From Dimargaris cristalligena (Eukaryota): a stretch of 40,864 nt of DNA. A program made the position numbers and the translations under genes. Shown here piece after piece: positions 1 through 33,636 of the stretch (position 1 is the first letter of the stretch; every line of letters starts with the position of its first letter). The DNA lies in contig ML002334.1 in assembly GCA_003614675.1 (NCBI GenBank), positions 1 through 40,864 on the forward strand, given 5' to 3'. The notes below the pieces were generated by a model. The model ran no database searches. It saw only the letters and a list, made by a program, of their open reading frames with translations, and was not told the origin of the DNA.

Positions 1-119
1 CAGGGGCAGGGGCAGGGGCTCATTCACTCGTCAGGGGCGTCCTTCCGATAAGTGCAAAAAATGGATTAAAAATAAAAGTAAGTAAAAAATGTGGTAAGTT
101 CACCACACCCATTATTATC

Positions 120-967
120 TGTCACCCAGGTTAACTACTCTTAGTACATCAAAAGTCCTGAGGATAGGCTTTTAATGGTAGGCAGGGCTTAGGCTTGGCC
201 AAATAGGCTGCTAGCATCAGGTATGGGGCACAATACTAACTAATAAAAGCTAAGTAGTAAGGATATGTAAAGGTAGTGTAGTAGGTACACTTACTAGTTA
301 GTACAAGGGGGGGTAAGTATATATAGAGTTTATTAGGGGTAAACTAGGGGTAAGAATAAGCTAAGGAATCTAGCTGGTCCCAATGGGGCCCAGTTTTATA
401 TATGCAGGGACAACTCCATAGGAAGGTCCTAAGGAAAGGACACTACTAAGACTAAGGTATAAGTAAATAAGCTGACTAGACAGCTACTAGTATCTGGAAG
501 ACTCTAATGGTAACTGGAAGAGTCTTTGGATTAGTACTTAAGTAATTAGTGAGAAGAGATAGAGTCTGTTGGAAATTAATTTCTCCTGCCCCTCTGAATT
601 CTTTACTCTGATTGGTCTGTCCTAATACCTGGGACTATTCTCTATCTATGAATATATCATCCTATACTCAGAACAAAGTTTATCATCATTACTGCTATTT
701 CCAACTCAATAAAACCAACTATGTGCATCTAGCTTTGCCCCTTGTAGTTCTTTCTCTCTTCTTTAAATCTTTATAGTTGCATTTGAAGGTACTTACATTT
801 ACCATCATATTTATATTTCTAATAGAGTCCAGAAGGGGAAGGGTTATATGATAAGGGATGATCCCATAATACCAGGGATGACTATGGGAAGGCTAATATG
901 ATACTATAAGGCCTAATATGGCTGGACATTAAGCCAGCTGGATTAAGGTGGATTAGATAGTCCAACA
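120..967 (-). mobile_element. Degenerate LTR (family A, about 590 bp net) interrupted by a nested solo LTR at 567-824
   Basis: Begins TGTCAC (120) and ends CCAACA (967). Excluding the insert it aligns with the reverse complement of 38454-39036, and 301-967 aligns directly with 39037-39441. No clear TSD. CpG-free. Confidence 0.75.
567..824 (+). mobile_element. Solo LTR (family B, Ty1/copia-like termini), heavily C>T mutated
   Basis: TGTTGGAAAT start and decayed end ATTTCTAATA (from ATTTCCAACA). Perfect 5-bp TSD GAGTC at 562-566 and 825-829. Internal AATAAA. Homologous to the reverse complement of 1531-1789. The empty site is visible in the family A copy near 39295. Confidence 0.9.
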
Positions 968-1530
968 GTGTTTATATTTTATCTTATACCTTCCCTGTTA
1001 TTTAAAGTCTGGTCAATAGCTACTGCATTCATCTAAGCATAGTAATATTTAGTCAGCCTTTCACAGTCTTTCTCCATAAATCAAATGCAACTGATTTATA
1101 CATTTTATACACATTGTTTTTAGAATATATGAATTACTTGATTCAGCCCTTTGAACCCTAATGATGAAGTCATTATATTCAAATAATGTATATGCTAACC
1201 TTCAAAGTACAATTAACTAACTGAATTTGTAATCAAAAATAGATATGATATAATACTGCTTAGCCATCTATGCTTGTATAATGACATTTATATCCTGACC
1301 TGCAAAGTGAGTAGTGGAAGGTTTATATATCCATAGTAACACCTGAAGCCTTCATGTATATTAGACCTCAGCATGCATAATTTACACCACTGGGCTTCAT
1401 ATCCATATAGATTTTCTGTTTCCAGTAGTCTATAGTATGGGAAGTCCACAACCCAAGTCATCTAATTGATACCCAATGCACACTGCCCTACCCACTCCAA
1501 AGAAAATATAAAGGTTAGCCGAGCACAGAC

Positions 1531-1789
1531 TGTTGGAAATATGGATTTGATAGTAAATGCAAGTACCTTCGAATACAACTGAAATGTTTTAAAGAAGAGA
1601 GAAAGAAGCGCAAGGGGCAAGGCTAGATGCCCGCGGTAGGTTTTATTGAGTTGGAATTAGTAGTAATAATGACTAGGACGAAGTCCCGGGTATAGAATGA
1701 TATAGTAAAGATTAGAATATAGTCCCGAGTATAGGACGAGCCAATCAGAGTAAAGGAATTGGTGGGACGGGGGAAATGAATTTCCAACA
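1531..1789 (-). mobile_element. Solo LTR (family B), well preserved
   Basis: 10-bp terminal inverted repeat TGTTGGAAAT...ATTTCCAACA. Perfect 5-bp TSD CAGAC at 1526-1530 and 1790-1794. 259 bp long and retains its CpGs. Confidence 0.92.
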
Positions 1790-2096
1790 CAGACATCATT
1801 ACATTGGGGCCTTAAAATAACACCAATTTAATTTCTAATCGTAATGTTTACAGTGTTGCATCACACGGGTTAATATATTTAAAAGTGTCAAATATTGAAA
1901 TGAATGTATCATTATAAGGATACCGAGGGATCAGGCGTGTCTAAGTGTTAGCCATCACTGAGATTACCTAATCCAACGACCAGAAAAATGAAAAGCAAAA
2001 GATGTCAATGAAATTACATATGTATACCAACAGATAGTGCAATATAACCTAAACTATTTTTTTTAAAAAACTATCCAGAATAAGATGAGCAAGGTA

Positions 2097-2462
2097 CTAA
2101 TCCTCCACAAATCGGTATCGGAGGCGAGCCTTCTGGTGATCTGGTACTACACAAAACTTCCTACATAAATCACAATAGTTGGCTATAGGGCAGGTTTTTT
2201 CGTGAATGAGTAGCCCTCGCGCAGTGCCAAATGCACCGTTACAGCCTCTGCACCTATACTGTAAATTGGATACTTTGCAGTCCCTTTGGTGTTCAACGAG
2301 AACATGGTGACGATAGAATTGACGACTACAAGTGGGACACTTGAATTGAGATATCTCTCTCTTCTGCTCACTGGAATTATCACGAGTTTCGTCGCCGTTG
2401 CTGGTATTTTCGTTCGATTCAATTAAGTAATCGATACCATGTCTAGCGTCCCGGTCACCCAT
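2097..2462 (-). CDS. Small C2HC/C2H2-like zinc-finger protein (121 aa)
   Basis: Two fingers, FKCPTCSRQFYRHHVLVEHQRDC and YRCRGCNGAFGTARGLLIHEKTC, plus a partial YCDLC motif. TATTTATAA box about 120 bp upstream on the minus strand, followed by a pyrimidine-rich leader. Confidence 0.65.
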   Translation of the reverse strand: MGDRDARHGIDYLIESNENTSNGDETRDNSSEQKREISQFKCPTCSRQFYRHHVLVEHQRDCKVSNLQYRCRGCNGAFGTARGLLIHEKTCPIANYCDLCRKFCVVPDHQKARLRYRFVED

Positions 2463-2849
2463 GATCGATTTGAGTGTACAGAGTAAATAGTGGGGTTGGA
2501 TATACAGGGTCTGAAATGAGATTAGAGGTATGGAGTTAAAAGTGTGATGGCTTAGCAGCGGGCGGCCAGCACTTGGGTTATAAATACTCCATTAATACTA
2601 GCAGAGTAACTAACAACAGTTAATTTTCCAAAGAAAATGGCTGGATGGGGTAAATGAAGAGGCACTCAGGGCTGGCGGCCTGGTTTTCGATTCCATGTTA
2701 CTGGCGACATCTCTGTTCTAAAAAGTATAATATTTATGCGTAAGAATTCAATAATAGACCAATGAACGGCATCAAAGATATGCCTGCGGACTACTAATGA
2801 AGTGGGCTTCTCTTTGAAAAACGTATAATGGATTAGGATTGATGGCATG

Positions 2850-3503
2850 CTTAATAACCAAGGAAATGCAACCCAACCCATCTTTGGGATCTATGAGCAA
2901 CCGTCACCTAGTCTCAGTGAGGCGCAGGAATTTAAACGCGTAAAGAATTGGCATCTTTTGACCATTCCCATTCATATGCTCTGCTAGCCTCGTTCAATTG
3001 TATGTCTCTATAATTTGCTATTTCTATATTATGTCTTCTAGCAGCGATTCCCAGCATACTCTTTGTTGGCCCTAAATTTATATCCTTGGTATGATTGGGT
3101 ATACAAAACTGGGCTCGTTCTTAGAGGTGTCCATTTGTTAAATAGTTATAGCAAGGCATTTTTGTGCAAGTTAGCCGATCCCCCTATTTGGCATCTGCCA
3201 CTATTTATATCAATAAAGGGCCCTTTGTAATCCTATTTTGAAAAGCCTCGGTTTACTCTTCCCAGGCGTAGGGTGGCTGACATCTGCAAGGATTATGCCC
3301 CGCCACAACCAGGAGGGCTTCTTTTATTGTTGGCCTAGATGCAAAGAAAGCAATATTATTCAGTCTAGCAATATACCATTCCAGGAAATATTATTATCGC
3401 TCAGTAGTAGTTGGTCTTTCAGAGAAACTGTCAAAAAATGTAAAGCTATATTGATGAGATGCACATGGTCGCAGTAGTATGCCACACATAATCCACTAAG
3501 AGG
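2850..3503 (-). pseudogene. Decayed ORF / dispersed repeat X, copy 1 (probably TE-derived, family not identified)
   Basis: Homologous to 40083-40730 in inverted orientation. Residual conserved peptides: IILADVSHPTPG vs IILADVSNPTPG; CYNYLTNGHL*ERAQFCIPNHTKDI vs YYNYLTVGYL*E*ARLCIPEQTKDI; KFLRLTET vs EFLRLIKT. Contains stops and frameshifts and is truncated by the LTR at 3507. Confidence 0.6.
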
Positions 3504-3506
3504 ATG

Positions 3507-3983
3507 TGTTAATGCCGGGTCGACTACGGCACCTGACATTGGCCAGGCAGATTATAGTGATGGGCATATGTCTAGGGTGGAGCCACCCATAACTGGACAG
3601 GGCCCCTGTGGAGGAGAACCTGGCGCCGTTGCCGGGGCCAATCTTGTAATAACTACGGTAAACTCGCCATCGGTCTCTAACACTCATGCCCCCAAAAACA
3701 ACATTCTAAACGCCATCGATAAGATTAAACCAGGGCGAAGACTCCAACTAGGATAACAGGCGCATCTGCTGCTGCACCATTCTGACTTAACTCCTCAATC
3801 TTCCAATATAACAGGCAGGATGTACTCGGCGATGTAATGTCCCTCAGATGCCTATTACTCCTACTCGCTCATTAAATATTTATTTGCTAATACCCGTCTT
3901 TAACATTTTCTACCTCGAGCTTGTTAATAAATTTATTTATCAATTATTGCATCTATATACGCTCACCAATTCGCTCATTAACA
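3507..3983 (+). mobile_element. LTR (family C)
   Basis: Terminal inverted repeat TGTTAATG...CATTAACA. TATA-like motif near 3805 and AATAAA near 3926. Homologous to the reverse complement of 4241-4585, with an extra internal segment of about 130 bp. No TSD match. Confidence 0.8.
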
Positions 3984-4240
3984 TTCCCTAAAGCCCTCTT
4001 CGATCAAGATCAGGAACTTCAAGTGCCAACATTGGCGAGAAGGGATTTGAATTGCTGGGTAGTCCTGCCTTCGATGCACTAGGCCTAGGAATCTACAAGA
4101 CGGCCCTGACTTCCTTCACAGGAGGTTGAGACTTCCCAATGGAGGCATACCGGATAACGGGTATGGGTATGTTCGAGAACCCAGACTGGCCGGTTTAACG
4201 GGCACTGAAACTAATGGTAGACGATGGATTGGGCCGTAGA

Positions 4241-4585
4241 TGATGATGCCTAGCGAATTGGTGAGCAAACTTAGATGTTATAATTAGTAGATAGATTTAT
4301 TAATCGGTTGAGACATGAAATGATAAATGAGGATACTAGCGAATGCATGTATTAATGAGCGAGTGGAAGCAATAGTCATCTGAGGGGCTCTACCACGCCG
4401 AGTTATTCCTTCCTTTTTATATTGGAGAATTTAGAGGTCTAAGTCGGAATGGTGTGGCCGCAGTAACATCAGGTTCTCCTCCATGGGGATTGTGTTCGAC
4501 TGGAGGTGGCTCCACCCTGGCTGTATGCCCGTCACCGTGAACTACTTGGCCGATGCCCTGTGTCGCAGTCAATTCGGCATTAACA
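4241..4585 (-). mobile_element. LTR (family C), inverted second copy
   Basis: The minus strand begins TGTTAATGCCG at 4585. It shares AGGGTGGAGCCACC, GGAGGAGAACCTG, CCCTCAGATG, ACTCGCTCATTAA and GCTCACCAATTCGCT with 3507-3983. The far end has decayed to CATCATCA. Confidence 0.75.
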
Positions 4586-5227
4586 ATAACAAGCAATTTC
4601 AATTGCTGAAGTACTAAGAAATACCAACCAAACTGCTATCAGATTATTAGGAACAATAATACTCTCATGATGCCAACTTCTGTGAATACACATCTGTTGT
4701 ATTTCCATTACAGGATTTCAACGTTTTTACATAAGTATTTGTATGATATATAAAAGCCAACTGTGTCGTAAAATAGATACAAAAGGGGTAAAAGGTGATT
4801 GTAAACGATAAATGAATTCACTAGAAATACATCAACAATAAACGGAATTTCAGGTATTAGTATTAGTGTTGAAAGGATGAAAGTCGTAAGAATAGGTGCT
4901 GATTAGCAATATAAAACAAGCTAAACATCGGATTGATTATGGGCGGGACTTGGTATCAACCACTGCTAATTAATCGTGAAATGTCAGACAGGACTACATA
5001 TTCACTCCTATATTGCTGTATTAATATAAATCCCCAGTAGTTTTCTTGTACTTTTATTATGAAATCCATTGTTAAAATGCCAAGTTCAATAACTTTTTTA
5101 TTTTTTGGGCTGCTAGCTACGATAAGTGCTACTTGTAAATGAGCTGTTGTCAAAGTAAAATACTTGGAGATGTCCTGAAAATGAATGACTTCAAGTGTCA
5201 GTTTAAGTTGTCAAGTGTCGCGCATGG

Positions 5228-6598
5228 TTACTTCCGGGTGTGCATTCTCATATGTGATGTGAGACTAATAGATTGTGCGTATGATGCATGGCAGATTGTG
5301 CAGTTATACGGCTTCTCCCCGGTGTGTGTTCGCATATGCACTTTGCAATTACTAGATTGGGAAAATGATTTAGAGCAAACTATGCAGGTAAATGGTTTTA
5401 CCCCGGTATGTGTTCGCAAATGTTCTGAGAGATGACTAGATTGTGAAAATGATGAAGGGCAAAAAGTACAGGCAAAAGGCCTATCCCCGGTGTGTGATCG
5501 GAAATGTACTGCGAGATGACTAGATTGTGAAAATGATAAAGGACAATTGTCGCAATTAAAGTTCTCCCCGGTGTGTGATCGCATATGTGCCTTGAGATTA
5601 TAAGCATTTGAAAAGGATTTCTTGCAAATCTCGCAAGGTATACAATTCTCACCAGTGTGTGATTGCATATGTGCCTTGAGATTATAAGCATTTGAAATTA
5701 TCTTGTTACAAATCTGGCAAGGAACACGCATCTCCCCGGTGTGCGTTTTCATGTGATGTTCGAGATTAAACCTGTTTGAAAGTAATTTGTTACAAATCTC
5801 GCAAGATATAAGATTCTCCCCGGTGTGTATTTGCATATGTTGCCTGAGGTTACCACTACTTGAAAGTGATTTCTTGCAGATGGCACATATATTAGTCTTT
5901 GTTTTGATTGGAGATGTTGAATGGGTTCTGGGTCGCTTCTGGTCCGTTGACGAGTGTTCATCCTGATCACTGATAGACGGTTTCCTTCTGTTGGGTAATA
6001 CTGGGGGATTGTCATTGCAGACGGAACCCGCAGACTCGGGTTGTTTGCGACGATGACCACCGGAATCCAAATCAATCGCTGAATGTATCGGCCGCGGGAC
6101 AAAACTGTCCCTGGATGCCAATTCACTTGCAACAGCGGGATTCCGACCCATACCAGACAGGTTCTCGGCCAGGGTTGGGTCTGAAGTGACATAGCCTCTC
6201 CCGCTATCGGCGTTGGTTGTATCATCTATACCGCCCTCTGAGTGGGGAATATATATTTCCGACACAAGTTGATTGCCGAGATAGTTTGCGTCGAGGGAAT
6301 CTTCGATTTGGAGGAGTTCCGTGACGGCCCTGTCACCCATGGTCACTTCGAGCTGGTGAATTAATTTATCCAACCCATCCGTGCTTAACTGGCCTATTTG
6401 ATCGATGGTCTCGGATAACGGCGGATCCATGGTGCAGGGTTTTGGGGTTTCCCTAGTGACTGCGTCGTCGGAAATAAAATGAGGTACATGGGCTAAAAAA
6501 GTAGTACCCTCATAGTCAAACTCGGGGTTGTATTCGCTAGAGGTACATGCTAGGGGGAGAAATGCCGTAACAAGGCCGGCCGTTTTGAACATACGCAT
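5228..6598 (-). CDS. Intronless C2H2 (Kruppel-type) zinc-finger protein with 8 tandem fingers and a signal-peptide-like N-terminus (456 aa from the ATG at 6598)
   Basis: Eight CxxC-x12-HxxxH units with TGEKP-like linkers (TGENLI, TGEMRV, TGENCI, TGENF, TGDRPF, TGVKPF, TGEKPY). The ORF-track start at 6688 is a TTG; the first ATG is at 6598 (MRMFKTAGLVTAFLPLACTSS). TATA-like CTATATAG near 6710. Confidence 0.9.
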   Translation of the reverse strand: MRMFKTAGLVTAFLPLACTSSEYNPEFDYEGTTFLAHVPHFISDDAVTRETPKPCTMDPPLSETIDQIGQLSTDGLDKLIHQLEVTMGDRAVTELLQIEDSLDANYLGNQLVSEIYIPHSEGGIDDTTNADSGRGYVTSDPTLAENLSGMGRNPAVASELASRDSFVPRPIHSAIDLDSGGHRRKQPESAGSVCNDNPPVLPNRRKPSISDQDEHSSTDQKRPRTHSTSPIKTKTNICAICKKSLSSSGNLRQHMQIHTGENLISCEICNKLLSNRFNLEHHMKTHTGEMRVPCQICNKIISNAYNLKAHMQSHTGENCIPCEICKKSFSNAYNLKAHMRSHTGENFNCDNCPLSFSQSSHLAVHFRSHTGDRPFACTFCPSSFSQSSHLSEHLRTHTGVKPFTCIVCSKSFSQSSNCKVHMRTHTGEKPYNCTICHASYAQSISLTSHMRMHTRK

Positions 6599-6951
6599 TG
6601 TAAAACAGCTGCTTAAGAGCAATCGATTAAAGTAAAGAGTGAAGAGGTATTGGTTAAGACAGAACCGACTCAAATGGCCAGATAGCAACTAAAATACGCA
6701 ATAATACTATATAGCCGTCTATAAGTGTACGCTGCCAATTTAGTATAAAAAATAATAATGCAAACATGACAATACTCAACGGTAGGTGCGTTGGGGGGAG
6801 CGTGCTATGGCAAACAATAGGAGGGATCAATGTTTATATATATATATATATAAATGGTTTATATGGAGATTTGAATAAGACGGACACTAGCCAGGCATCA
6901 ATACCGGAAGGTTCCACGGTGTTACATCTTGTGCCATTAAATAACCCAATA

Positions 6952-7338
6952 TATTGACGCTTAAGTTGCAACCGCCAGGTGAGGCGGAACACCCAACTAT
7001 AGAGCGACTAGGACATCCGGCCAATGAAATCGTCCAACCCGTCCCTCCCCTTACATCCACCTCCACCGGGCAAGTGGTGAACAGCAGCCGCCCAAGCCAG
7101 TAGACAACCAACCGAGTAGTATATAACGAATAGACACAGCATAATCTTGACTCCTTAAGTTTCGATTTAATAATCAATAAATAACTCTTTAAAACTTTTC
7201 CCGCCCAACTCGGCACCTTGTTATTTTGTCAAATCCTTCCTTCTTTGGAAACTCGGTTAATCCATAGGTCCCACTCGACCCAAACCGTTACAAAGTCTAT
7301 ACCATGTCTACATTGTTCAACAATGCTGGTATAAGCGC
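6952..7338 (+). mobile_element. Probable LTR with a downstream primer-binding-site-like motif
   Basis: Starts TATTGA (decayed TGTTGA) and ends TCAACA at 7322. TATATAA near 7120 and AATAAA near 7176. TGGTATAAGCGC at 7327-7338 matches the canonical tRNA-iMet PBS TGGTATCAGAGC at 10 of 12 positions. No second copy in the window. Confidence 0.45.
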
Positions 7339-7656
7339 AGATTCGTTGGAAAATGAATGGGGGCAGACTCTGTTGGCATAATACAGGTGTTCTCTCTAAA
7401 GCATATTTCGGCTATGGCCATGGAAAGACCTGGGTCAACATTGGAAGGGGGATTCCACCCAAGTGGCACATGTATCCCGAATGTAGAATACACGGCTATA
7501 AAGCAGTCGATAACGAAAACAAAAAAACAAGGTGGGAATGGTTTAATCTAGCTGTGCAGTGAAAAGTCTCGCTGGTAAGTCGTGTTATTTAAAATACTAT
7601 GCAGCTGCGCTGGATCCCAACCATATACATTTTAAAAGGACAAGAAATGGATGTTA

Positions 7657-7936
7657 TGTTAGAAATATAGCGGATTTGATTATTGAAATCATACAAGGGC
7701 GCGTAACCTATTAGATTTAGAAATCAAGGGGTGAATACGGGGAATTCTTGATGTTAATTAAAATAATAATAAAAGAGAGGCGGAACCTCAGGTGGCACTA
7801 GTAAATGTCCCAAGTGAGCTTTATTGAATTTGATACGATAAATAATCAACCGATATGGGTGAAATTCAGCCCGGCTGTATCAGATTTTGAATTATATGTA
7901 TGGGAAAATGGAAGGGGGATTCATTTTTAACCAACA
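7657..7936 (-). mobile_element. Probable solo LTR related to family B
   Basis: TGTTAGAAATATAGCGGATTTGAT resembles the 1531 end TGTTGGAAATATGGATTTGAT. Ends CCAACA. Minus-strand AATAAA near 7820 and a similar length. No TSD. Confidence 0.45.
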
Positions 7937-8784
7937 CTATTTGCATCATCCAACGGATTCTTCGTTCGACTATCTATGTTTTTGGTTTAGATATTGAAAC
8001 TCTAGGCAACTGGGGGATTAAAGCCAGAGGCCGATCACCTGGAGTATAGTACTCTCACAAGACCTGTCTTTTATTTACGATACCGAATTACTGGGCGTGA
8101 CAATAGCCGGGATTAACATCCGCCTAGGCTAATGGCAGTATAAGTTAACAGTCGGTGCTTGGTAAAGGAAAGTGCTTGATTTGGGCCACTCAACTGCCTG
8201 CTGTACATCATAGGGAAGGTGTGTTTAAAGGCGCCGACGTTTTTTGGAATGTACTTAGCAGTGAATATTAACATACGAGATGTACTTACTGCACACTACT
8301 GAGATACTCCAAATGGACATAGTGTCATCAATAGAGATGGTCGTCGTGTGTGGCGGTCCCATGGGATATAACAAGTGACTGGCTGACCAACCGATCTAGC
8401 CCTCCTGGAATGATTAAGCCTGTAAGGCATAATAATAGGGCTCAGTGGGCTGGCGGGAGGGCGCCAAGACTGTGTGAAAGGCGCCGCGATAGAACGTGCC
8501 ACACGGTCTATTAACAAGAAACCTTCTAATACCACCACCACCCTTTCCTTTTATATGTATGTTTCTGCCAGTAATTGCCTTCCCAATTGAATTGTATTGC
8601 ACATTCTTTGACCTCCCTTGTATGCTTCCCCTGAGACCAGCTAAACTAGCTTAGCCAGTCACCGGCTTCCTAAAGTTTCTACCGACCCCCTCCTCCTACT
8701 TCTTACTTCCACAACGCGCCCACCCTTTCTTCATAACCGTGTACATTCCCCTCCCCTCTCCGAGTGCATTTACCACACACCACC

Positions 8785-9417
8785 ATGGTGAAGACCTCCA
8801 CTGACCAGGGATTTCCCGACTACTACGCCGTCCTGGGCGTCTCCCCCACCGCCTCTGAAGAGGACATTCGCAAGGCCTACATGAAAGAAGCCCTGCGCAC
8901 CCACCCGGACCGCAGCGAAGACCCCAAGGCCACCCAGCTGTTCCAACAGGTCGCCGACGCCTATTTCGTCCTAAGCGACCGCCAACGACGGAAAGACTAC
9001 GACCGCGCCCGCTCTAGCCGGAGCCAGCGTTCCGATTGGCAGCGCCGCCATCCCGCGGCCAGTCACCCCTTCGACAGCAATAGTAGTAGCGGCAGTGGTG
9101 GCCTGGCCGGTGGGGACGGCGAGGCAGACGCCGAGTCCACCTTTTATTCGGTGTTTGAGGATCTCCTGCGACCCGAAGTCGAAAACCCCCGGAGTTTCTG
9201 GGGTCCGGTGGGCTACGCCGCCGGGGGCGTTTTGGGTTTTATCGTGGCGAACTTACCCGGGGCGATGGTGGGCGCCTTCGCCGGGGGTAAACTAGGCACC
9301 ATTCGGGATAGGAAGGGCAAGGCCGTCTACGAGGTGTTCAATGGGCTGGAACGGACCCACAAGTATGCTATTCTGCAGGCCCTTTTGGTCCAAATGCTCG
9401 CCGGTAAATATAAATAA
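8785..9417 (+). CDS. DnaJ/J-domain protein (type III) with a C-terminal glycine-rich hydrophobic segment
   Basis: DYYAVLGVSPTASEEDIRKAYMKEALRTHPDR (HPD motif) ... FQQVADAYFVLSD. ATG in a CACCATGG context after a CT-rich leader. Intronless. Confidence 0.93.
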   Translation: MVKTSTDQGFPDYYAVLGVSPTASEEDIRKAYMKEALRTHPDRSEDPKATQLFQQVADAYFVLSDRQRRKDYDRARSSRSQRSDWQRRHPAASHPFDSNSSSGSGGLAGGDGEADAESTFYSVFEDLLRPEVENPRSFWGPVGYAAGGVLGFIVANLPGAMVGAFAGGKLGTIRDRKGKAVYEVFNGLERTHKYAILQALLVQMLAGKYK

Positions 9418-10152
9418 GCCCCCACCACCTATACTACACGCTCTATTTGGCTCTTTGCATTGATAGATGATATCAGTATGTTTATCTATACTCTTCGTCA
9501 ATTCTCTGTGTATGTATGTGTGGTTATTGGCTTATTCAATGACGACCTCGTTGTGGAGCAGTTGCTATGCGTTTGCTTGGCTATGATGGTTAGTGGTCCA
9601 TCGTGAGTTCTGTATTCTAAATATCTATATTAATAAATACCCCCTTATAAGACCGACTAGAATGTCCAACATTCCAATAATCACGTACACTCAAGAGCCT
9701 GTTCGACTAGAGTAAGCCGATCCTAAATTACCAAATTCATCGTACATAAATAAAATATCTTTATCGGTACAATCTAAAACGAGGGCAATTCTTCGTCAGA
9801 AAATGAGGGGAGGGGTGGGATTTTGGTAAACTAAACGCATCCTTTTGAATAATACAGCAAACGCCGCATGGTTGCTCTTGTGTTATGATTAAGGAGGCGG
9901 GGATTGACAGCAGCCTTTAGCGTTGTCAAATTTTAACGTATTAAAGCAGAAGTGGGGGGACTACCATCATCGTCAATACAATCAAGTTGGCTATACACAG
10001 TAGACTACGCTGGTAAAAATGCAGAACAACGTAAATGGGAGTCAGGCAGGGAAGTAGGCTCTGGGAGAGTGTGGATGAGAAATTATATCCGTAGCACACC
10101 TTTCCCGTACACAACCCCTTTCCGACTATCCGGCGAGTAAGAGTATCGTTGC

Positions 10153-13100
10153 TCAAGCCATACCGGCCTCGGCTTCCATCCAAGGCACAACCATATCAAC
10201 CAGACTGCCAGCCGGTTCCTTGACCGTATCGGGGAAGAAGGCCAACAAGTCGTCAAACAGAACCCGCCGTGAACCATGGATCAGCTGTTCGCGTGTGGGG
10301 GCATCCTTAGGCCAGTCGTGGAGGAGCGCGACCGGAAGCCGGTGGAACGCGGCCACTTGGAGGGGATTATCGAAGTCCACCAATTCGGCCAGTTGGTTCT
10401 GCAGGTACTGGATGGCCTTGAGAATACGCTGGTAGTCGTACGTCGAGGGCGGGGGATTGAGACTACTGTGGTAGGCGGTAACATAGGATGATACGGATGT
10501 CGAATGGGCGGAGTCCATCCCCGAGTGCATGGGCCGAGCCTGGGGAGCCAATATACACATTTCCAAAAAATGTTGACGACGTACCAGGAATTTCATTCGC
10601 TTGATGACATCAGTGGCGGTGGGTTTGCGAAGTTGGAGCGCCCATAGGTCATTGAGCCGGTGGTTGGGGTGTAACGAATGCCGACGGGTCCAAGAGGCGG
10701 CGGAAGACGAGCAGAAGGGGTGGATGAAGGGCGCATTCCCTCCCGTCGCTAGAGCACCCGCCACCGGATGGGTGTTGGCCAAATCGAGGGGTGGGGAGCC
10801 CGAGGAGGGCGGCGGGGCAGGCGGAGCGACCGAGGAGGAAGGTGCGGGGAAAGGCAGACCCGGGTCTGATTCGGAGGGAGAGGACGGGGAGAATGAGACA
10901 CCGCCGAATAGGTAGTGGGTTCGGTGACGCTCATCATAGACCAGCTGGTGGGCAATGCGTGCGCAGGGGAACGTCGGTGACGCTGGTGGTGAATGCGACA
11001 GGGTCGGGGCGGTTTCCTGCGCCATGCCCAAAGACCTGAATTCCGCGCCTGACGATGCCTTGGTAGCTACGGGGACAGTAGGCGAAGAAACCGACTTTTC
11101 GGGGGTACATAGGCGGGGTCCTGTCAAATCATCCAAGTAAAAGAGAAAACGCGGACACTGGCCGGCCAGGGAGCGGCGGGACCCCGACATCGCAAGACTC
11201 CCGCCTGCCCTACATTTCGACCCCGCCGCCGAGGATTGACTAGGGGGGCACGATTTCAACTCAGCTCCCGGCGACAGCTGTGCTGGGCTGGTATCTGTAG
11301 GGGACGGGCGGACAGGGATGGTGGCGCTCGGGGCAACAGCTCCGGGAATAGTTCCAGTGGGCGGGGAGGTAGCCGGGTAGGATACCGAGCTGGACCGGCG
11401 GTGTGGTAGAGTAGTAGCAGAGTCTAGCTTATTAGGAGGTGTGAGTGGGTCACTAATCCCGTTACGGGAGTGAGTTCGGAATATGGGAGTCCAAGTCTCG
11501 GAAGGTACATGATAACTCCAAAGGGTGCTCACAATATCACTACTTTCCGTGCCCTGCCCCTTGAGGGAGGGATTGTAGGCCCAGCCGGTGAAGACGATAA
11601 TCTCCTGTCGGTCGGGGTCGTAGGTGGCCCTGTGGGTGTAGCGCCGGTCATAAACGATGGAGTTGTTGGTATGTGGAGTCACCTTCTCGAATACGGTATC
11701 GGTGTCCATATCGTAGACCGTAAAGTCGCCCTGGCCAGTGTTTTCCCGCTGGGTCGCTATAATCAGCAGTTGCCGACTGCGCGGATCCAGGAGCGTCGAC
11801 TGTTCCATCCGGGTGCGTAGGGCAGCGTCCACATCGGTGGGTAACACGTCTGGCCGTAGAACCGTCCAAGTCTTGTTGGGAATGGAGTAGCGGTAAAGAC
11901 CCGAATAAACGCACTCCCGGGCATCACTGTTGATGGTACGGCCACCAAACACAAAAAGCTGCTGGGTAGCGGCATCGACGGTCATCTCCAGGTCGAAGGA
12001 TAGACGAGGGCCGCCATCCAGTTCAGTATTGACCGAGAGGCGCTCCCAGGAATTGGTGTGGATATGGTAAGCGTAAAAGTCGCTGTCCAGGGAATTTTCG
12101 CCGCGCTGGTCAGGGTCCACGTAACGGCCGAGTAAGTACAGCACTTGGGTTTGCGGGCAGCAGCACATGGTGTGGTAATTACGAGGCCCCGGCCCACCTT
12201 GCTGGGCTGTATCGGCGCTGATGAGCTCCCACTGACAGCTTTCCAGGTGGTAGCGCCAGAAGTCAGACAGACTCTGGGTGCCGGACCACCCACCAAACAA
12301 GTACAGGTGGCCACCGACCGGATCCATGCACATTTGGTGGGCACCGCGACCGCCGGGACTAGGGCCGGAACGGGGGAGTACCCGCTCCCATTGGGCGCTG
12401 TAGGGGCAACTGCGGATGTAGTCATTCAGGAGGCCGTTGGCATTGCAGGTGGTTAGCATCGATTCCAGACGGTCAAAATGGCCACCCAAAGCGGCAGCCC
12501 GCATATCGGTAACCAGGGGATTTTCGAGTTGGATGGGGGGTTGGTCAGCGGGCAAGGGCCGAATCATGCCCTGTAAGTCGAAGCGCTGGGGGTTCAAGTC
12601 GCGGATTACCTTGAGACACATCCGCAGGGCCACCCGCTCGCAGTAGTGCTGGTACTGGGCGACCAAGGGCTGTACTACGGCGGGGTCCTGGACCCCCCGC
12701 AGCTCCAGATACCAGATACTGAAGTTAAACTTGAGTTCGTAGGCCATCAAGGGGACGACCTTGAGCCACTGGATCGGGAACGGGACCCGGCCGCCGTGCA
12801 GGGTATTGCGGACGGTGAACGACTCGGGCTCGCTGTCGTCGCGCAGTCCCGACAGCAGAATTTCCACCCAGTGGTTTTCGGTAGCGGCGGCGAGTACTTT
12901 GAATTCCTTGAGGTTGCAGATATGCTTGCGGGAAAACTTGCCAAAGGTGATACTCTGAAGGAGACAGGGCCGGTCGAGTTTGAGGGTCAGGAACTGGTGT
13001 TGATCACCGGCGCCGGAGGACCACCGTGACCGACCGGCCGTCGGCTGATTAACTTTGATGTTATCGGGGTAAAAATCGGCATTGTAGCTGGAATAGTCAA

Positions 13101-13524
13101 TGACTTCGTAGCCGAGTTTTTCCATGCGCCGGGTGGGCCGACTGAGTACTCGAGTATCATCATGGTGGTCGGTCGGAGAGGGCGAGGTATGGGGGTTCAG
13201 AAGCGGACAGGGTGGAATGGAATATTGGGAGGCAGAGGAGTTGGTTAGCGAACCCCGGCGACCCAAGGCCTCGGGGGCCAACCAAGTATGGCGCGGGTTC
13301 AGTGGGCGCGGGGTGGGCTCGGCATCGGCTGAACCATTGGCGATAATGGGAGGGGTGATGCGGTAATTGGCGAGCGGGAATAGGTTGCACTCGGCGAAGA
13401 GGTTGGGGCCGGTGGACAGTGTGGCCGGCTGGTCCGTTTCGTCCGGGGACCGTAAATGCATGGAAAGAGGGAATGTGTAACCGAAGGAGGAGAGGAGGTG
13501 AGGTGATAGGACAGTATAGGGCAA
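10153..13524 (-). CDS. MKLN1: Muskelin (CTLH/GID E3 complex subunit): discoidin-like domain, kelch repeats and C-terminal module
   Basis: N-domain YSSYNADFYPDNIKVNQP...RWSS...ITFGKFSRKHICNLKEFK; kelch PGGRGAHQMCMD...YLFGGWSG; C-terminus RRVLFDDLLAFFPDTVKEPAGSLVDMV matches muskelin. The start codon is uncertain because there are several in-frame ATGs. Confidence 0.92.
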   Translation of the reverse strand: MPYTVLSPHLLSSFGYTFPLSMHLRSPDETDQPATLSTGPNLFAECNLFPLANYRITPPIIANGSADAEPTPRPLNPRHTWLAPEALGRRGSLTNSSASQYSIPPCPLLNPHTSPSPTDHHDDTRVLSRPTRRMEKLGYEVIDYSSYNADFYPDNIKVNQPTAGRSRWSSGAGDQHQFLTLKLDRPCLLQSITFGKFSRKHICNLKEFKVLAAATENHWVEILLSGLRDDSEPESFTVRNTLHGGRVPFPIQWLKVVPLMAYELKFNFSIWYLELRGVQDPAVVQPLVAQYQHYCERVALRMCLKVIRDLNPQRFDLQGMIRPLPADQPPIQLENPLVTDMRAAALGGHFDRLESMLTTCNANGLLNDYIRSCPYSAQWERVLPRSGPSPGGRGAHQMCMDPVGGHLYLFGGWSGTQSLSDFWRYHLESCQWELISADTAQQGGPGPRNYHTMCCCPQTQVLYLLGRYVDPDQRGENSLDSDFYAYHIHTNSWERLSVNTELDGGPRLSFDLEMTVDAATQQLFVFGGRTINSDARECVYSGLYRYSIPNKTWTVLRPDVLPTDVDAALRTRMEQSTLLDPRSRQLLIIATQRENTGQGDFTVYDMDTDTVFEKVTPHTNNSIVYDRRYTHRATYDPDRQEIIVFTGWAYNPSLKGQGTESSDIVSTLWSYHVPSETWTPIFRTHSRNGISDPLTPPNKLDSATTLPHRRSSSVSYPATSPPTGTIPGAVAPSATIPVRPSPTDTSPAQLSPGAELKSCPPSQSSAAGSKCRAGGSLAMSGSRRSLAGQCPRFLFYLDDLTGPRLCTPEKSVSSPTVPVATKASSGAEFRSLGMAQETAPTLSHSPPASPTFPCARIAHQLVYDERHRTHYLFGGVSFSPSSPSESDPGLPFPAPSSSVAPPAPPPSSGSPPLDLANTHPVAGALATGGNAPFIHPFCSSSAASWTRRHSLHPNHRLNDLWALQLRKPTATDVIKRMKFLVRRQHFLEMCILAPQARPMHSGMDSAHSTSVSSYVTAYHSSLNPPPSTYDYQRILKAIQYLQNQLAELVDFDNPLQVAAFHRLPVALLHDWPKDAPTREQLIHGSRRVLFDDLLAFFPDTVKEPAGSLVDMVVPWMEAEAGMA

Positions 13525-13663
13525 TGAGGCACTATGGAGGGTTTAAGAAAGGAGCGTGGGCGGTGTTTTGGAGATGGACAACAGGCGACGATGCGGAGCG
13601 TCAACACAAGACGGGGTATGAGAAGGACCCTGAAAGGGAAAGAGATATAGAAAGAGAGAGAAA

Positions 13664-13665
<2 letters not shown>

Positions 13666-13702
<37 letters not shown>
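13666..13702. repeat. (GA)n microsatellite upstream of muskelin
   Basis: About 18 uninterrupted GA units, forming a CT tract on the muskelin strand. Confidence 0.95.
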
Positions 13703-13703
<1 letters not shown>

Positions 13704-14562
13704 AGCATTGAGCGAGGGCGATATCGTGCGTTCCCAGGGTATTAAGGGTTTATTGAACCATGCCGCAAGGTAGGCGGAACGTGACCCTGGAAGCTGAGAG
13801 GATGTCCTTATTCGCGGCCCTATGTGGTTCTTGCCTATTGAATTGGAGGCCTAGAGAGTGGCGAGTTCTTCCTCCTATTATTGCCCCCCCATGTGAGACC
13901 TCCTAGTAAAACCCCCTGTCTAATGTGCTGACTATTAACCAATGCAGCTAAGGTACTCTTCCGTCTTGTCATGGACCCTGTCGAGTCAGGTAAGTCCTCC
14001 CAGACTCTTACTCTCTATGCCCACCGATGCGCCGTGTCACCTGGCCTGGAGGTGCAGGGTGCCGCTCTACTTCTGGTCGTGAACTGACGCCCGCCCTATT
14101 ATACTCTTCTAGCTGGTAAAACCCCGCCGTCATGTCGGGTCCTGCTGAGAAAACGACCCAGCCGTATGGGGTGTCTCTTCAACCTAATAGGCCTTCTTTG
14201 CCTTCTACTACTCCGCATTTCCGGTTAGTAATCGAGGGGGGTTTCGGCGGGGTCTGAAACCCTGACCCGGTGGCCTGAACTGAGCTGAGCTCTTCAAACA
14301 ATAGCCCAAGGGGCCACGCTTCACCTTGGTATTTCCGCTACCATCGCCAAAGGGATATGTCCCAACCGATATATTGGAATGGTAATACTTCAGTCGGCGG
14401 AAACAGCTATCACCTTATTCATGAAAGGGTTATATTTATTCATATTTATAAATGTGGCACTAATCAAAAAACTAATGAATGCAGCCGTGATTGGGGAAAG
14501 GGGCACAATCGGAGGGCTTGTCGCCACCCTTTCTCCATTTCTCTCACTCATTCACGGAATCA

Positions 14563-24179: not shown

Positions 24180-27100
24180 ATGCCCATTTCCGGTAGCAGC
24201 AGTCCAAGTCCCCAGGACGAGCCAATCGAGCTCCTGGCCGTGTCCTCCACCGATGCCATCCACCTGTTCTCCTTGAATCCCGCCCATTCGGCCGACCGGA
24301 GCTCTTCCACAACCCGTAAGCTAGTTTGCCCTCCCCTGAAACACACCCACACATTCACTGGTATTGAAAGCTGGTTATTGGGTATATGCGATAAACTCCA
24401 GCCCACCTCAAATGAATATGGCCGACCCCTCGACTCATACAAACTAGCCATGGCTATATACCCTATTGTACCTCCCAGCCGTCAAATTTCTGCCCATCGC
24501 CAGTTGGTCCCCCTTCAAGGTCGTTCCGGACGACCCCGTTCTCGCCAAATATAGCCACCCCAAAGCTGAAGTCCGATGCATAGCCTGGAGTCACGATGGT
24601 AAGTGCTGCCTCCTCCCTACTGATCACCTGTTGGTGTGCCCTCATTTTACTTTTGGACCGAATGTCAGAAGCCCTTTTATTCACTTACACCATGCTGTAC
24701 TATGACCCACCGGCATACGATCCCTGTCTATTCATTGCCCACCCCCCTCCCTTTCCCTTCCCCCGACTGCAGGCCAAAACTTGGCTGTGGGAGGTACTGC
24801 GCCCTGGATCGAAATTTACACGTGGCAGGGCCAGTTGGTCGAGTCCTTCCCCATTATTAAACCCGCCGAAAACCCGGATACCACCTGTGTGCAAACCATG
24901 GAATTTGCATCGGAATCCCGCACGGTCGTCTACGGGGGATCGTCCCGTCAGGTTCGCCGATATGATCGTCAAGCTAAATGTATTGCACAGTCATTTCAGG
25001 TAGGTATTGAATTAGGCAATTTTTGCTTAATTATGGTCAGCGATTCCCAATCCTTGCTCTTTGTTCAGATGCCTTTATATCTTCACAGTGGGATCCGCCT
25101 ACTATAAATACCATTTATAACTCCCAATTCGACATTGCCCAATCCCTATCCCCACCACTCTAACCCCTCAACTCAGCTACCTATTCCCCTTTGAAATGTC
25201 ATTTTTACCACTACTTTTTCCAGAGTCACAAAACTGCAATTACCGCCGCAGCATTGAGCGTTGATAAAAGTATGATTGCCAGTGGGTCCAACCGCGGCGA
25301 TATCACCCTCTTCAACCGGAAGAACGGAACCAAAGCCGAACTGAAGTTCGGTACTCGGCACGCAATCAATAACCTACAGTTTTCGATCAAGCGCAAACAT
25401 ACTTTAGCGGCCATTAGCGACGACGGGGCGGTGGCCGTCTGGGATACCCACCGGGCCGCCACTCCAGTCAAATTGTTTAGTCGGGTTCATTCGGCACCGT
25501 CCCGGGGATTGGCTTTCAGCCCGGCTTCATCATATACACTGTTTTCTGCCGGCCTGGATCAGAAGATTGTTGTTTTCGATTTGTTAAAGCGAAGGTAAGA
25601 GCAAATTCTAAATAATCGCATCCCCATTTACCCAAACTCCGCGATTGAAATCATGCCCTCTATCTACCTGTATCACCAAGCTTCGATTACTTTCACTAAC
25701 CTCCTTTTTTACTGACCTTCCTTGCCGCACTTCACTGGCCATATTTCCCCGCTACAGCATTACGGAAACCATCAATACCGAATACCCCATCAATACACTA
25801 GCCATCCATAGCGACGGCAACCATCTCTTTGCGGGCACCCTGACGGGACAGGTGATTCTTTACGATACCCGGCTCCCGGCCAAACACCTCGAAATAGTCC
25901 CTTTAGAGGGACCGGCTAAACCCGTAGTCGCCATTCACTTCCAGGTAAGCTGCCCATGTAATACATACGTTTCTACTCGCTGACTTAGTATTTGGTATTA
26001 CCTGCCCCTGTCTATTTGGGAATGCTTTGTATCGGTAATCGAAGGATATAGGGCAAACACCGGCCTGAAAATATATATGAAATGTCGCTATCGGGCCCAT
26101 ACCCTAGGGGGGATTGCAGTACACTGCATGGCGCCTATTATCCACCCACAGCCCCAGTAGTATGTCAGCTATTCATGTGGCCTTGACCCGCCTTACTATT
26201 TAAGCTGGGAGTCTATGATCTCCGCTTTGGTAATTTTCTAATCCGCCCCCTTGTTTATGCCTACATGGTTTGTTTTCATCAATGACTTCCGCCTCACGTA
26301 TGACAGGGAGATTCCAAAATCAACCGAACCGCCTTTGAGAAACACTTAAAGACCCTCGTGCCCCCAGCCCCGGCCCCCGCACCTACAGTTATCCATACAC
26401 ACTATCGTCGCGACAGTGGTCAAGAGACGAAGACACCCCCCACCCCACCTCAATTTGCTATTCCTTTCACCCAACTTGCCGTATCTCCCACACCTCTCCC
26501 GCTCTCCCTGGCCCGGTCCACCACCCCTCCACCTTATCGACTGGCCGACACTGACGAGGCCGTGGTTCCGTCATCCCCACCCCCCAGTGCCGCTTTAAAA
26601 GCACCGGCCTTGCCTGATAAACTCCTCACTCCAGCATCCCCTACCAGCGACCCTCTGACTGACAATTCCATGGTGGCCCGAGACCGAAGCTATATGGAGC
26701 TGTTTTCACCCGTAGGTCGACCAGCCGTAACCCGAATGACATCCTCACCTCTTCAAAAGGCGCATATTCAGCCCCGCACTTACACCCCTGCGTTGTGCAG
26801 CCCCACTAAGGCACCCCTTTCTCTGGCCAAGGTGGACCGAAGTCCACCGAATGTGGTAGCGGCCCCCAAGTCCAACCTCTTTGGGCGGGACTCGGCGGTG
26901 GGTTCTCGCCCGCCCTTATCAAATCTTAGCCCACGTCTGTTTCCACCCTTACACATCACGCCCCAACCGCCCAAGCCGCCTAGTGTAGAATTCACACTCC
27001 CGCCGCCCTGGGAGCCCCAGCAGAGAATGTCCACTACCGGCGCATCATTAGTTGCTACCCAGCGACCCACCCAACCAACTGTTGAGGAAGCGCCGCCTTC

Positions 27101-28021
27101 TGAACCATCGCTTCGGTACACTGAGGGTGATTCTAGTAAGTTATTGTTATTATATTCCATATTTGGCGTATCACTGCCCTACCCCGCACAACCATTCAAC
27201 TGCTCCGCATATAAATATTACCCGGGGAGTTGGCCAGTCGCCCATTCATTGTCTCTGTAAACTCCCTAATCATGCATATACTACCTACTATTTACCCATT
27301 TTACCACGCAGTTCTGGACGTATTTTCGCCCATTGCCAGTCAAAAGAAGCCCGTGGTTCAGACTACACCCGCTAAGGCCACCACGCCAGTGCATCCCCGG
27401 GCCGACGATGACCCCGGGCGGTTTTCACTGAACCGGAATACGCCCAAGACTATCCGTAAATCCGCGCTCAAGAACCGGCTGAAGCATCTGACTAATGCAT
27501 CCCCTGGGCCATCCGATGCCTTGGACCTGCTCCCCTCCCCATCCCCCACGACTAAAGGAGTTCGCAAAGTTATATTTGCCGCGGAGGAGGATCTGCTTGG
27601 CGCACTACCCCGGCCTCCCTCGGCCGACCATCCCATCTACTCGGCCACCAAACGGTCACCCCCTACTGCTCCCGTCCCGCCACATTCACCGGGACCCACC
27701 CGGACTACACCATCCCTGGGACGAACCAAAGCTTCTCCACGACGCTCGCCCGGTACCGCGAAATCCACCAGCTCGGTTGGCGAGGGATTCCAACTCACTC
27801 TAATGCAGAACCTAATCAATGAGTCACTCCAGAACTTTGGATTCGACCTGCGCCAGGAGTTCCATAATCTCCACCTGGAAATGCTGCGGCAATTCCATAT
27901 CCAAGAACAGAACCAGGAAGACCGCTTTAATGACCTACGCAATCAAAACGAAATCCTATCGGAATTGGCACGGCTTCGGGAGGAGAACAAGCGACTCAAA
28001 TCGGAGCTTGGTTACCAGTAA
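24180..28021 (+). CDS. NEDD1: NEDD1/GCP-WD, gamma-tubulin ring complex targeting factor (7 exons)
   Basis: Exons 24180-24315, 24479-24598, 24773-24999, 25224-25594, 25758-25944, 26307-27135 and 27312-28021, phase-consistent. WD40 repeats (HSAPSRGLAFSP...SAGLDQKIVVFD), an S/P-rich linker and the C-terminal helix NLHLEMLRQFHIQ...ELARLREENKRLK typical of NEDD1. Confidence 0.9.
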
Positions 28022-32872: not shown

Positions 32873-32990
32873 AGTTATGGCCACATGTGGACTTCAGCAC
32901 CGTATCCCGTTAGATCTGCGTAGTAAAGTATCCAACAGCTAATTTAGTACTGAGGTGGGAGACCACTTGGGAATAGTTAGTGCTATAACT
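32873..32990 (+). rRNA. 5S rRNA gene (dispersed, divergent sequence)
   Basis: 118 nt. Helix I AGTTATGGC/GCTATAACT; helix II with the canonical A63 bulge; loop C TCCCGTTAGATC; loop E TAGTA/GAA; box C-like GTACTGAGGTGGGAGACC. TATA-like element near -30 and a T-rich tail. Confidence 0.92.
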
Positions 32991-33636
32991 TTATATATTT
33001 ATTTATTTTGCTTTATAGGGGGGGGTGGGTATAACAAACTTATTAGAAAGGTTCAATACAATGACGGATAGTGTATTTCCACAAAATAATACGGGAAGAG
33101 GTTGGAAGTGACTGCTTGGGGTTATGTATGAACGTTAGAAATTGATCCTATGAGTTGAATTGTTAATGATCGAATCGGCGAACTAATTGGGGTTGAAATT
33201 TGATTTAAATGTGCCAGATTATAGATGAGCTGTAAAACGAAGCCATTCTCTTAACCGACATTACCAATTCCTTTAGATGTAATTTTTGTTATATAGGTAG
33301 ATTGGAGTTCCGCCATATTCACAGGGACCCACTCATTTATCTGTAAGGACTGCCTTATTATAGACCGTCAGCCTGGCTAGTCCCCCATTAATTTAAACGT
33401 TAAAAAGCACGTCACTCCCTTCTTTATGGTATTATTTTGTTAGAACAGTTCCTTTTCTAAGGACATTTAAATAACCTGAAGCTTGCGATACTAGTTTATT
33501 ACTAGTAATCCCTACCCACCAACAATATAAAATATCTACTTTACTCACAATCGCAGCACTACTATAACATGGGGGGTACTGCTATTTGCAAGACCAGGGT
33601 ATAGCATATATATGGGTCCGCCGAGGGGTTGGGATT

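Follow-up and report, generated by a model that had tools for sequence, protein, structure and literature searches.

Can a fungus that lives on other fungi send a DNA-binding protein into the nuclei of its host? This question is raised by an open reading frame (ORF) in a stretch of DNA of Dimargaris cristalligena (contig ML002334.1 of GenBank assembly GCA_003614675.1, positions 1 to 40,864 of the forward strand; this whole stretch of 40,864 nucleotides is hereafter called the window). The ORF, located at 5228..6598 on the (-) strand, encodes a protein, P0001, in which a signal-peptide-like N-terminus is followed by an acidic region, basic motifs, and an array of eight C2H2 zinc fingers, and the original prediction, which was made from the letters of the window, proposed it as a secreted transcription-factor effector on the guess that the organism is a mycoparasite. 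That guess agrees with the literature, as D. cristalligena is treated as a biotrophic mycoparasite in the accessible part of its genome paper (Ahrendt et al, 2018; PMC6784888), and the Dimargaritales are called mycoparasites in the accessible part of a later one (Reynolds et al, 2023; PMC9866270). Here, we conclude that the gene, its family, and the conserved leader are, taken jointly, very probably real, and that P0001 is a credible candidate for a protein sent into the host nucleus. Of the single explanations, an activator that is secreted, enters the host nucleus, and binds DNA accounts best for the findings; we put it forward tentatively and as somewhat short of probable.

An intact reading frame that recurs in a second sample

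The ORF, which the original prediction took to be intronless, consists of 456 codons and the stop codon at 5228-5230, and its start is the first in-frame ATG; the stop-to-stop span extends 30 codons further upstream, to 6688, and these 30 codons contain no ATG. Over 457 codons, the frame of the ORF holds a single stop, its own, compared with 12-31 stops in each of the remaining five frames. The zinc ligands of the eight fingers are all intact (32/32). The locus was also recovered from a second D. cristalligena sample, at single-copy depth and with 0-1 differences, and is present on a 40.6-kb contig of a second assembly. Because the frame is intact, the zinc ligands are kept, and the locus recurs in the second sample, we count the ORF as a real gene. 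Contamination and mis-assembly were rejected in view of the recurrence of the locus in that contig and in the second sample.

A hydrophobic leader conserved among paralogs

The first 20 residues of P0001 (6539..6598 on the (-) strand), delimited as a leader by their hydrophobicity and their conservation in paralogs, run directly into the acidic region, the N-terminus reading MRMFKTAGLVTAFLPLACTS/SEY. A basic n-region (R2 and K5) precedes an uncharged hydrophobic core of ~11-13 residues, and small residues at -3/-1 permit a predicted cleavage after residue 19, 20, or 21. Residues 7-19 hold the most hydrophobic 9-, 11-, and 13-residue segments of the whole protein (Kyte-Doolittle means of 2.19, 1.98, and 1.76, respectively), and these features bear out the signal-peptide-like N-terminus that had been noticed before. 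The hydrophobicity windows revealed no further hydrophobic segment in P0001 beyond the leader core, which is, at its predicted length of 11-13 residues, too short to span a membrane. Since the core is short and stands alone, the product would be soluble and secreted, with its fingers in the lumen, if the leader engages the endoplasmic reticulum (ER). A mitochondrial presequence was rejected by inspection, because the basic residues of the segment number only two, its hydrophobic core is uninterrupted, and acidic residues appear as early as position 22.

Relatives of the N-terminal half were sought by an exhaustive phmmer search against 1.84 billion representative proteins, which returned seven matches, six of them short D. 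cristalligena proteins (116-211 aa) and the seventh a low-complexity match to a fish protein. All four matches of a profile search with the family were from D. cristalligena, with no species added, and the phmmer and profile searches found no ortholog of the N-terminal half outside D. cristalligena. A word-indexed search with this half against 5.8 billion proteins of 250-798 aa gave 754 candidates, none of which reached E≤0.01. The organism-B run (share 0.11) yielded no ortholog; what it contained was a few pieces of 151-230 nt that match the window exactly or almost exactly, at a depth of 2-5, together with diverged repeat pieces. Among the metagenome contigs of JGI, a single-protein query gave 202 pattern matches, none of them confirmed, and residues 1-232 had no usable match in the ESM Atlas. 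The family alignment had no match at E≤1 in a profile search of PDB, and Pfam gave nothing over the cut-off for the N-terminal halves of P0001, the six paralog models, and P0009. Within the collections covered, the family is so far restricted to D. cristalligena.

The public models represent the locus in the window (P0002 and P0009) and four other loci (P0003/P0008, P0005, P0006/P0010, and P0004), the models having been paired into loci by the near-identity of their sequences. The leader is present at 4 of the 4 loci with a modelled N-terminus: it reads MRVFKTAGLVQVFLSVTRA in P0003, MRVFKTAGLVLVFLSVARA in P0008, and MRVFKTVGFILAFISLARA in P0005, each followed by SEEYD, and M(HACKM)TGLLSLLFLVCTSG in P0006/P0010, followed by ANDSE. 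The paralog leaders are more signal-peptide-like than the copy in the window (…LVLVFLSVARA|SEEYD, …FILAFISLARA|SEEYD, and …LLSLLFLVCTSG|AND), and in three of the models a small-x-small arrangement stands at the cleavage position directly ahead of SEEYD, namely A-R-A in P0005 and P0008 and T-R-A in P0003. Identity to the leader of P0001 amounts to 12/20, 13/20, 11/20, and 9/19 (11-13/20 for the paralogs of MR[MV]FKT type), and that to residues 31-56 amounts to 5/26, 5/26, 0/12, and 6/26. Substitutions in the core (columns 9-17) exchange one hydrophobic residue for another. The original prediction had named an unconserved, non-hydrophobic N-terminus in relatives as the finding that would speak against it; the opposite was found in the paralogs, among which the leader is the best-conserved segment of the N-terminal half.

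The pattern of conservation also bears on translation. M1 is kept in 5 of the 5 leader-bearing models, and the position of M56, a later in-frame Met of P0001, is occupied by E, E, or A in the paralogs; therefore, the paralogs must begin translation further upstream. Between the leader and the conserved DPPLSE motif, the frame is moreover open in paralogs that are only 35-40% identical. By this comparison, the leader is translated and under constraint, because M1 is kept, M56 is not, and the frame remains open to DPPLSE at such low identity. P0005 unites the leader, a KRPRK motif, and a C2H2 finger in one frame, and the architecture is thus that of the family and not of the copy in the window alone. 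The parts appear to follow a fixed order in the family, with a signal peptide (predicted, cleavable), an acidic region, nuclear-localization motifs, and C-terminal C2H2 fingers.

As a rough yardstick, we applied a crude signal-peptide rule, devised after the sequence had been viewed, with one condition each on the n-, h-, and c-regions: an uncharged 9-residue window with a mean Kyte-Doolittle value of at least 1.9 must start no later than residue 13, the residues ahead of that window must include K or R but neither D nor E, and small residues must occur at -3/-1 no more than 8 residues past the window. The rule was passed by P0001, P0003, and P0010, and by P0005 and P0008 when read from the conserved Met, hence by 5 of the 6 leader-bearing N-termini; P0006 as modelled lacks the basic residue and fails. 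None of 120 control zinc-finger proteins, taken from the matches listed in the finger-half search described below, passed, the hydrophobic window alone being present in 6 of them, and composition-preserving shuffles passed at 0.1-0.25% (236/200000 with the composition of the N-terminal half and 507/200000 with that of the whole protein). Of 32 ORFs in the window that start with ATG and encode at least 100 aa, this ORF was the only one to pass.

Acidic region, basic motifs, and zinc-finger array

The acidic region that had been noticed earlier covers residues 21-160 (6119..6538 on the (-) strand), with 26 D+E compared with 6 K+R, and opens with the family motif SE(E)Y[ND]PEF directly past the putative cleavage site. 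It includes a family block, DPPLSETID..QL..DGL....QLE..MG, at residues 57-88 (6335..6430, (-) strand), in which 15/32, 12/26, and 16/32 positions are identical to those of the paralogs. The basic clusters resembling a nuclear-localization signal (NLS), likewise noticed earlier, lie at residues 182-224 (5927..6055, (-) strand), with RRK at 183, RRK at 204, and KRPR at 221. Both N[RK][RK]K and KRPR are found again in P0004 and P0005. Judged on the presence of these motifs, NLS motifs are present in P0001, their function being a predicted one.

The eight fingers occupy residues 238-453 (5240..5887, (-) strand) and were delimited by pattern scan and Pfam. All eight units match the C-x2-C-x12-H-x3-H pattern, and the Pfam scores were far over the cut-offs (150.1 bits for zf-H2C2_2, cut-off 40; 133.5 bits for zf-C2H2, cut-off 25.2), in agreement with the eight Krüppel fingers of the original prediction; the families matching P0001 numbered 12, every one of them a zinc-finger family. 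The array falls into two subgroups. F1-F4 have the linkers TGENL, TGEMR, TGENC, and TGENF and carry N.N at helix positions -1 and +3, and F5-F8 have the linkers TGDRP, TGVKP, and TGEKP and carry Q.[HNS] at these positions. The earlier description of the array as TGEKP-linked accordingly holds in part, one of the seven linkers being TGEKP and two being TGDRP or TGVKP; the other four (TGENL, TGEMR, TGENC, and TGENF) lack the K/R-P ending. The array has a repeat period of 84 nt, or 28 aa, and nucleotide identity reaches 86% between F3 and F4 and 79% between F5 and F6, which indicates that finger units were duplicated recently.

A search with the finger half against the 5.8 billion proteins of 250-798 aa gave E≤1e-10 for 7626 of 8000 scored candidates, and the 120 matches listed were generic arrays. 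Animals supplied nearly all of these and Metschnikowia 2; the name Dimargaris was absent among them. A collection of 15 billion proteins contained neither P0001 at its full 456 aa nor the finger half.

Public annotation of the locus

Both public models of this locus (5895-6430, (-) strand) start at M56, disagree with each other, and drop all eight fingers. The JGI model, P0009 (142 aa), runs from 6430 to ~6036, skips the next 35 nt, and then continues for ten frame-shifted codons, and the model of the other assembly, P0002 (116 aa), runs from 6430 to 6128, skips the next ~190 nt, and ends in 14 frame-shifted codons. Thus, both public annotations mis-model the gene. The models are probably ab initio, because the word stem "transcriptom" is absent from the accessible text of the genome paper (PMC6784888). 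As both annotations truncate the gene and drop the fingers, surveys of secretomes or transcription factors that use these proteomes would miss the whole zinc-finger family. Directly upstream of the ATG lies an in-frame stretch of 66 nt without ATG (6599..6664, (-) strand), which aligns with a 21-aa N-terminal extension of P0005 and P0008 and could be either a 5' leader or a lost extension.

Genomic setting and other features of the window

The gene lies in an AT-rich stretch, and its neighbors are housekeeping genes (DnaJ, muskelin, Sec8, a DEAD-box helicase, acyl-CoA oxidase, and CPSF100). Three DNA runs of this organism served to estimate copy number by contig depth. Repeats at ~10 to ~700 times the single-copy depth flank the gene on both sides: upstream, 7006..8406 is a high-copy repeat with a contig depth of 515-2442 compared with ~211 for single-copy genes (run X5), and downstream, 1..1868 holds very high-copy repeats with an inverted-repeat structure. 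The gene itself is at approximately single-copy depth (174-344 compared with 211 in run X5). Of the 59 ORFs of 45 aa or more in the six frames of 1-8700, none matched a transposon protein family, and the earlier placement of the gene among long terminal repeats (LTRs) was thus not borne out, the flanks being high-copy repeats. The single-copy depth of the gene and the lack of transposon protein domains in the flanking ORFs also led us to reject the ORF as a transposon. The setting is effector-like, that is, an AT-rich, repeat-flanked compartment beside GC-rich housekeeping genes.

Several further features were observed in the repeat-rich part of the window. A (TA)n microsatellite lies at 6825-6862, ~230 nt upstream of the ATG, and the contigs of the runs break there. 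The same AT-rich stretch holds an ATG-ORF of 121 aa, P0131 (2100-2462, (-) strand), with an acidic N-terminus and two C-x2-C-x12-H-x4-C (C2HC-type) fingers; its zf-C2H2 match is weak (21.7 bits, under the cut-off), it was not found in the protein collection, and it does not resemble the main family to a significant degree. Nested inverted repeats, with arms of 58-143 nt that are 72-83% complementary, form two long imperfect palindromes at 3507-4585 and 567-1789, the latter in extremely high-copy sequence with a depth of up to ~10^5 in the contig sets. Differences among repeat copies in 1-14000 are mostly transitions (496 compared with 208 transversions in run X5); all four transition types are represented, and hence no one-directional C-to-T signature is seen.

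In the remainder of the window, a solitary 5S rRNA gene (32873-32991, (+) strand; Rfam RF00001, 88 bits) lies between the genes for acyl-CoA oxidase and CPSF100, and 5S genes therefore appear to be dispersed here and not linked to the ribosomal DNA. Two overlapping GC-rich open frames of 318 and 268 aa at 26304-28021 ((+) strand), which match no Pfam family, probably belong to a single gene of unknown function that changes frame or contains an intron. One repeat family occurs near both contig ends (320-526 and 39053-39258, 77-80% identical and in the same orientation), which is consistent with the assembly breaking in repeats.

Comparison with known systems

The statement of the original prediction that C2H2 proteins are normally without signal peptides is outdated, since the order of signal peptide (SP), NLS, and fingers is known from Magnaporthe oryzae MoHTR1/2/3 (accessible parts of PMC7672089 and PMC10189765). 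MoHTR1/2/3 are described in the accessible text as secreted C2H2 nuclear effectors, with secretion, entry into the host nucleus, and binding to host promoters shown experimentally (PMC7672089), and in MoHTR3 the same kind of source places the SP at the N-terminus, the NLS in the middle, and the C2H2 domain at the C-terminus (PMC10189765). The SP-NLS-C2H2 architecture is therefore already proven in Magnaporthe. P0001 shares this order of parts, its leader being a candidate SP, and both groups are lineage-restricted. They also differ: the MoHTRs are, in the accessible accounts, small proteins analyzed as having a single C2H2 domain, whereas P0001 has 456 aa, eight fingers, and an acidic region of ~140 residues, and the host is a plant for the MoHTRs and a fungus for D. 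cristalligena, itself an early-diverging fungus of the Kickxellomycotina. The comparison is one of architecture and not of sequence, and because the N-terminal half of P0001 has no relatives outside D. cristalligena, any link to the MoHTRs would be a convergent architecture.

The TAL effectors of Xanthomonas, to which the protein had been likened, share with it the logic of a modular repeat that binds DNA, combined with an NLS and an acidic activation region and delivered into the host nucleus. The likeness stands at this conceptual level; membership in the group fails, as P0001 has no repeats of 33-35 aa, its 12 Pfam families are zinc-finger families only, and its repeat period is 28 aa. TAL effectors, in addition, are bacterial and leave the cell by type III secretion with no ER signal peptide.

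Animal Krüppel-type proteins (ZNF180, ZNF544, ZFP2-like, and PRDM5/9) were the best array matches among those listed, with 32-51% identity over 75-96% of residues 190-456, and share the tandem C-x2-C-x12-H-x3-H units and, with F5-F8 of P0001, the TGEKP-like linkers. In contrast to them, P0001 has no KRAB, SCAN, or PR/SET domain, its N-terminal half is unrelated, and 4 of its 7 linkers are non-canonical. Judging from these matches, the resemblance reflects the repeat type in general and not orthology. Membership among KRAB (or SCAN/BTB) repressors was rejected, as Pfam found no family in residues 1-232 at E≤0.1. TFIIIA has nine fingers that begin near the N-terminus and is a universal single-copy ortholog; it was rejected because P0001 has eight C-terminal fingers behind a non-finger half of 237 residues, a half that has its paralogs in one species and was not found elsewhere.

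A candidate host-nuclear effector and its rivals

The Dimargaritales, including D. cristalligena, have haustoria as feeding structures. In the effector reading, the leader would route the protein into the secretory pathway and be removed near residue 20, and the mature protein would be released by the parasite at the interface with its mucoralean host. It would then reach the host nucleus by means of the KRPR and RRK motifs, where the eight fingers could read a DNA site of up to ~24 bp and the acidic region could recruit the transcription machinery. Signal-peptide function, secretion, uptake, nuclear import, DNA binding, and activation are all inferred here. On this proposal, P0001 would be an effector that reprograms host transcription in a manner analogous to that of MoHTR1-3.

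Several findings weigh against this reading. In the copy in the window, the core, which includes T and P and no more than three L, is the weakest in the family, the crude rule that it passes was made with the sequence in view, and P0005 and P0008 fail that rule when read from their upstream Met. The start context of M56 (ACCATGG) is stronger than that of M1 (ACAATGC), the P0005 and P0008 models begin 21 codons upstream, in frame, and a pyrimidine tract followed by AG stands directly ahead of the ATG. Given the tract and the alignment of the 66-nt stretch with the paralog extensions, the gene may have an exon further upstream or may ancestrally have encoded a longer N-terminus; if the N-terminus is longer, the hydrophobic segment would fall at ~27-40, where a long n-region is still compatible with a signal peptide, although less typical. 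No full-length paralog (250-798 aa) was found in the protein collections. The GC content at third codon positions (GC3) is 0.45 for the ORF and 0.39 for the fingers, compared with 0.65-0.73 in six neighboring genes, and so low a value is equally compatible with an effector compartment and with a gene that is young or weakly expressed. Zinc fingers delivered in this way must also survive the oxidizing secretory pathway. Even in M. oryzae, according to the accessible text of PMC7672089, few of 20 predicted secreted DNA-binding proteins were validated.

After the effector reading, the next in rank is that P0001 acts in the nuclei of the parasite itself, as an ordinary endogenous transcription factor, which we regard as unlikely, less so than the remaining alternatives. 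Its hydrophobic N-terminus would then be no working signal peptide: translation might start mostly elsewhere, at M56 or in an exon or extension further upstream, or the segment might have a different function, such as that of a degron or a contact between proteins. A C2H2 array with an acidic region and an NLS is the textbook layout of a nuclear factor, the better start context at M56 coincides with the choice of both public pipelines, and the open frame upstream is a homolog of the extensions in the P0005 and P0008 models. Nevertheless, M1 is conserved and M56 is present in no paralog, and the public models that chose it disagree with each other, discard eight intact fingers, and are probably ab initio. 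The leader, furthermore, is the best-conserved N-terminal segment, its substitutions keep hydrophobicity rather than sequence, and no N-terminus of this kind was found among the 120 control zinc-finger proteins. Secretion without targeting to the host nucleus, for example for the binding of nucleic acids or metals at the interface or the cell wall, draws on the same leader evidence as the effector reading; the conserved KRPR and N[RK][RK]K motifs and the eight-finger array with its DNA-type linkers in F5-F8 point instead to a nuclear, DNA-binding role, and we consider this alternative the least probable of all.

Two further alternatives are about equally improbable, ranking only slightly above secretion without nuclear targeting. 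P0001 may be one of a lineage-specific family of fast-evolving zinc-finger proteins whose targets are the abundant AT-rich repeats of the parasite itself, in genome defense or repeat regulation, by a logic like that of animal KRAB zinc-finger proteins. The confinement of the family to one species, the recent tandem duplication of fingers (86% between F3 and F4), and the repeats at 10 to ~700 times the single-copy depth directly beside the gene would suit such a role, and N/Q at -1 and N/H at +3 of the helices suggest A-rich targets under the classical recognition code. Against it, Pfam found neither KRAB nor any other repressor domain in residues 1-232, the N-terminal half is acidic and thus activator-like, and the conserved secretion-type leader is left unaccounted for; to our knowledge, no such repeat-binding zinc-finger system is known in fungi. 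The ORF may otherwise be young or decaying and not expressed, a duplicate stranded in a repeat-rich region that has not yet acquired stops. Its GC3 far under the values of the neighbors, the paralogs known solely as short predicted fragments of 116-211 aa, and the failure of both gene predictors to take up the long frame are in line with this. However, 456 codons are free of stops in a region where the other frames hold 12-31, the zinc ligands are all intact, and conservation along the protein is patterned, being high in the leader, the DPPLSE block, and the NLS and low in the spacers, which implies selection.

Taken together, the effector reading ranks above the endogenous factor, and the smaller alternatives follow. 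In its fullest form, the proposal is a family of secreted poly-zinc-finger proteins that are delivered via haustoria into mucoralean host nuclei, where their arrays would read long DNA addresses and the acidic region would activate host genes; this full form is rather doubtful, marginally more so than the endogenous factor.

Implications

Almost nothing is known about how biotrophic mycoparasites among the early-diverging fungi control their hosts, and a literature search found no paper on Dimargaris effectors. If the full proposal is true, this would be the first transcription-factor effector passed from fungus to fungus, as well as the first case of a eukaryotic effector family based on an array of many fingers, which could be re-targeted by finger duplication. 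The SE(E)Y[DN]PEF motif, positioned directly past the cleavage site, would then be a candidate host-uptake signal. If the leader works, the principle of the MoHTRs would be extended from a plant pathogen to a parasite of fungi and from one finger to eight, and the target of the array could be predicted and sought in host genomes.

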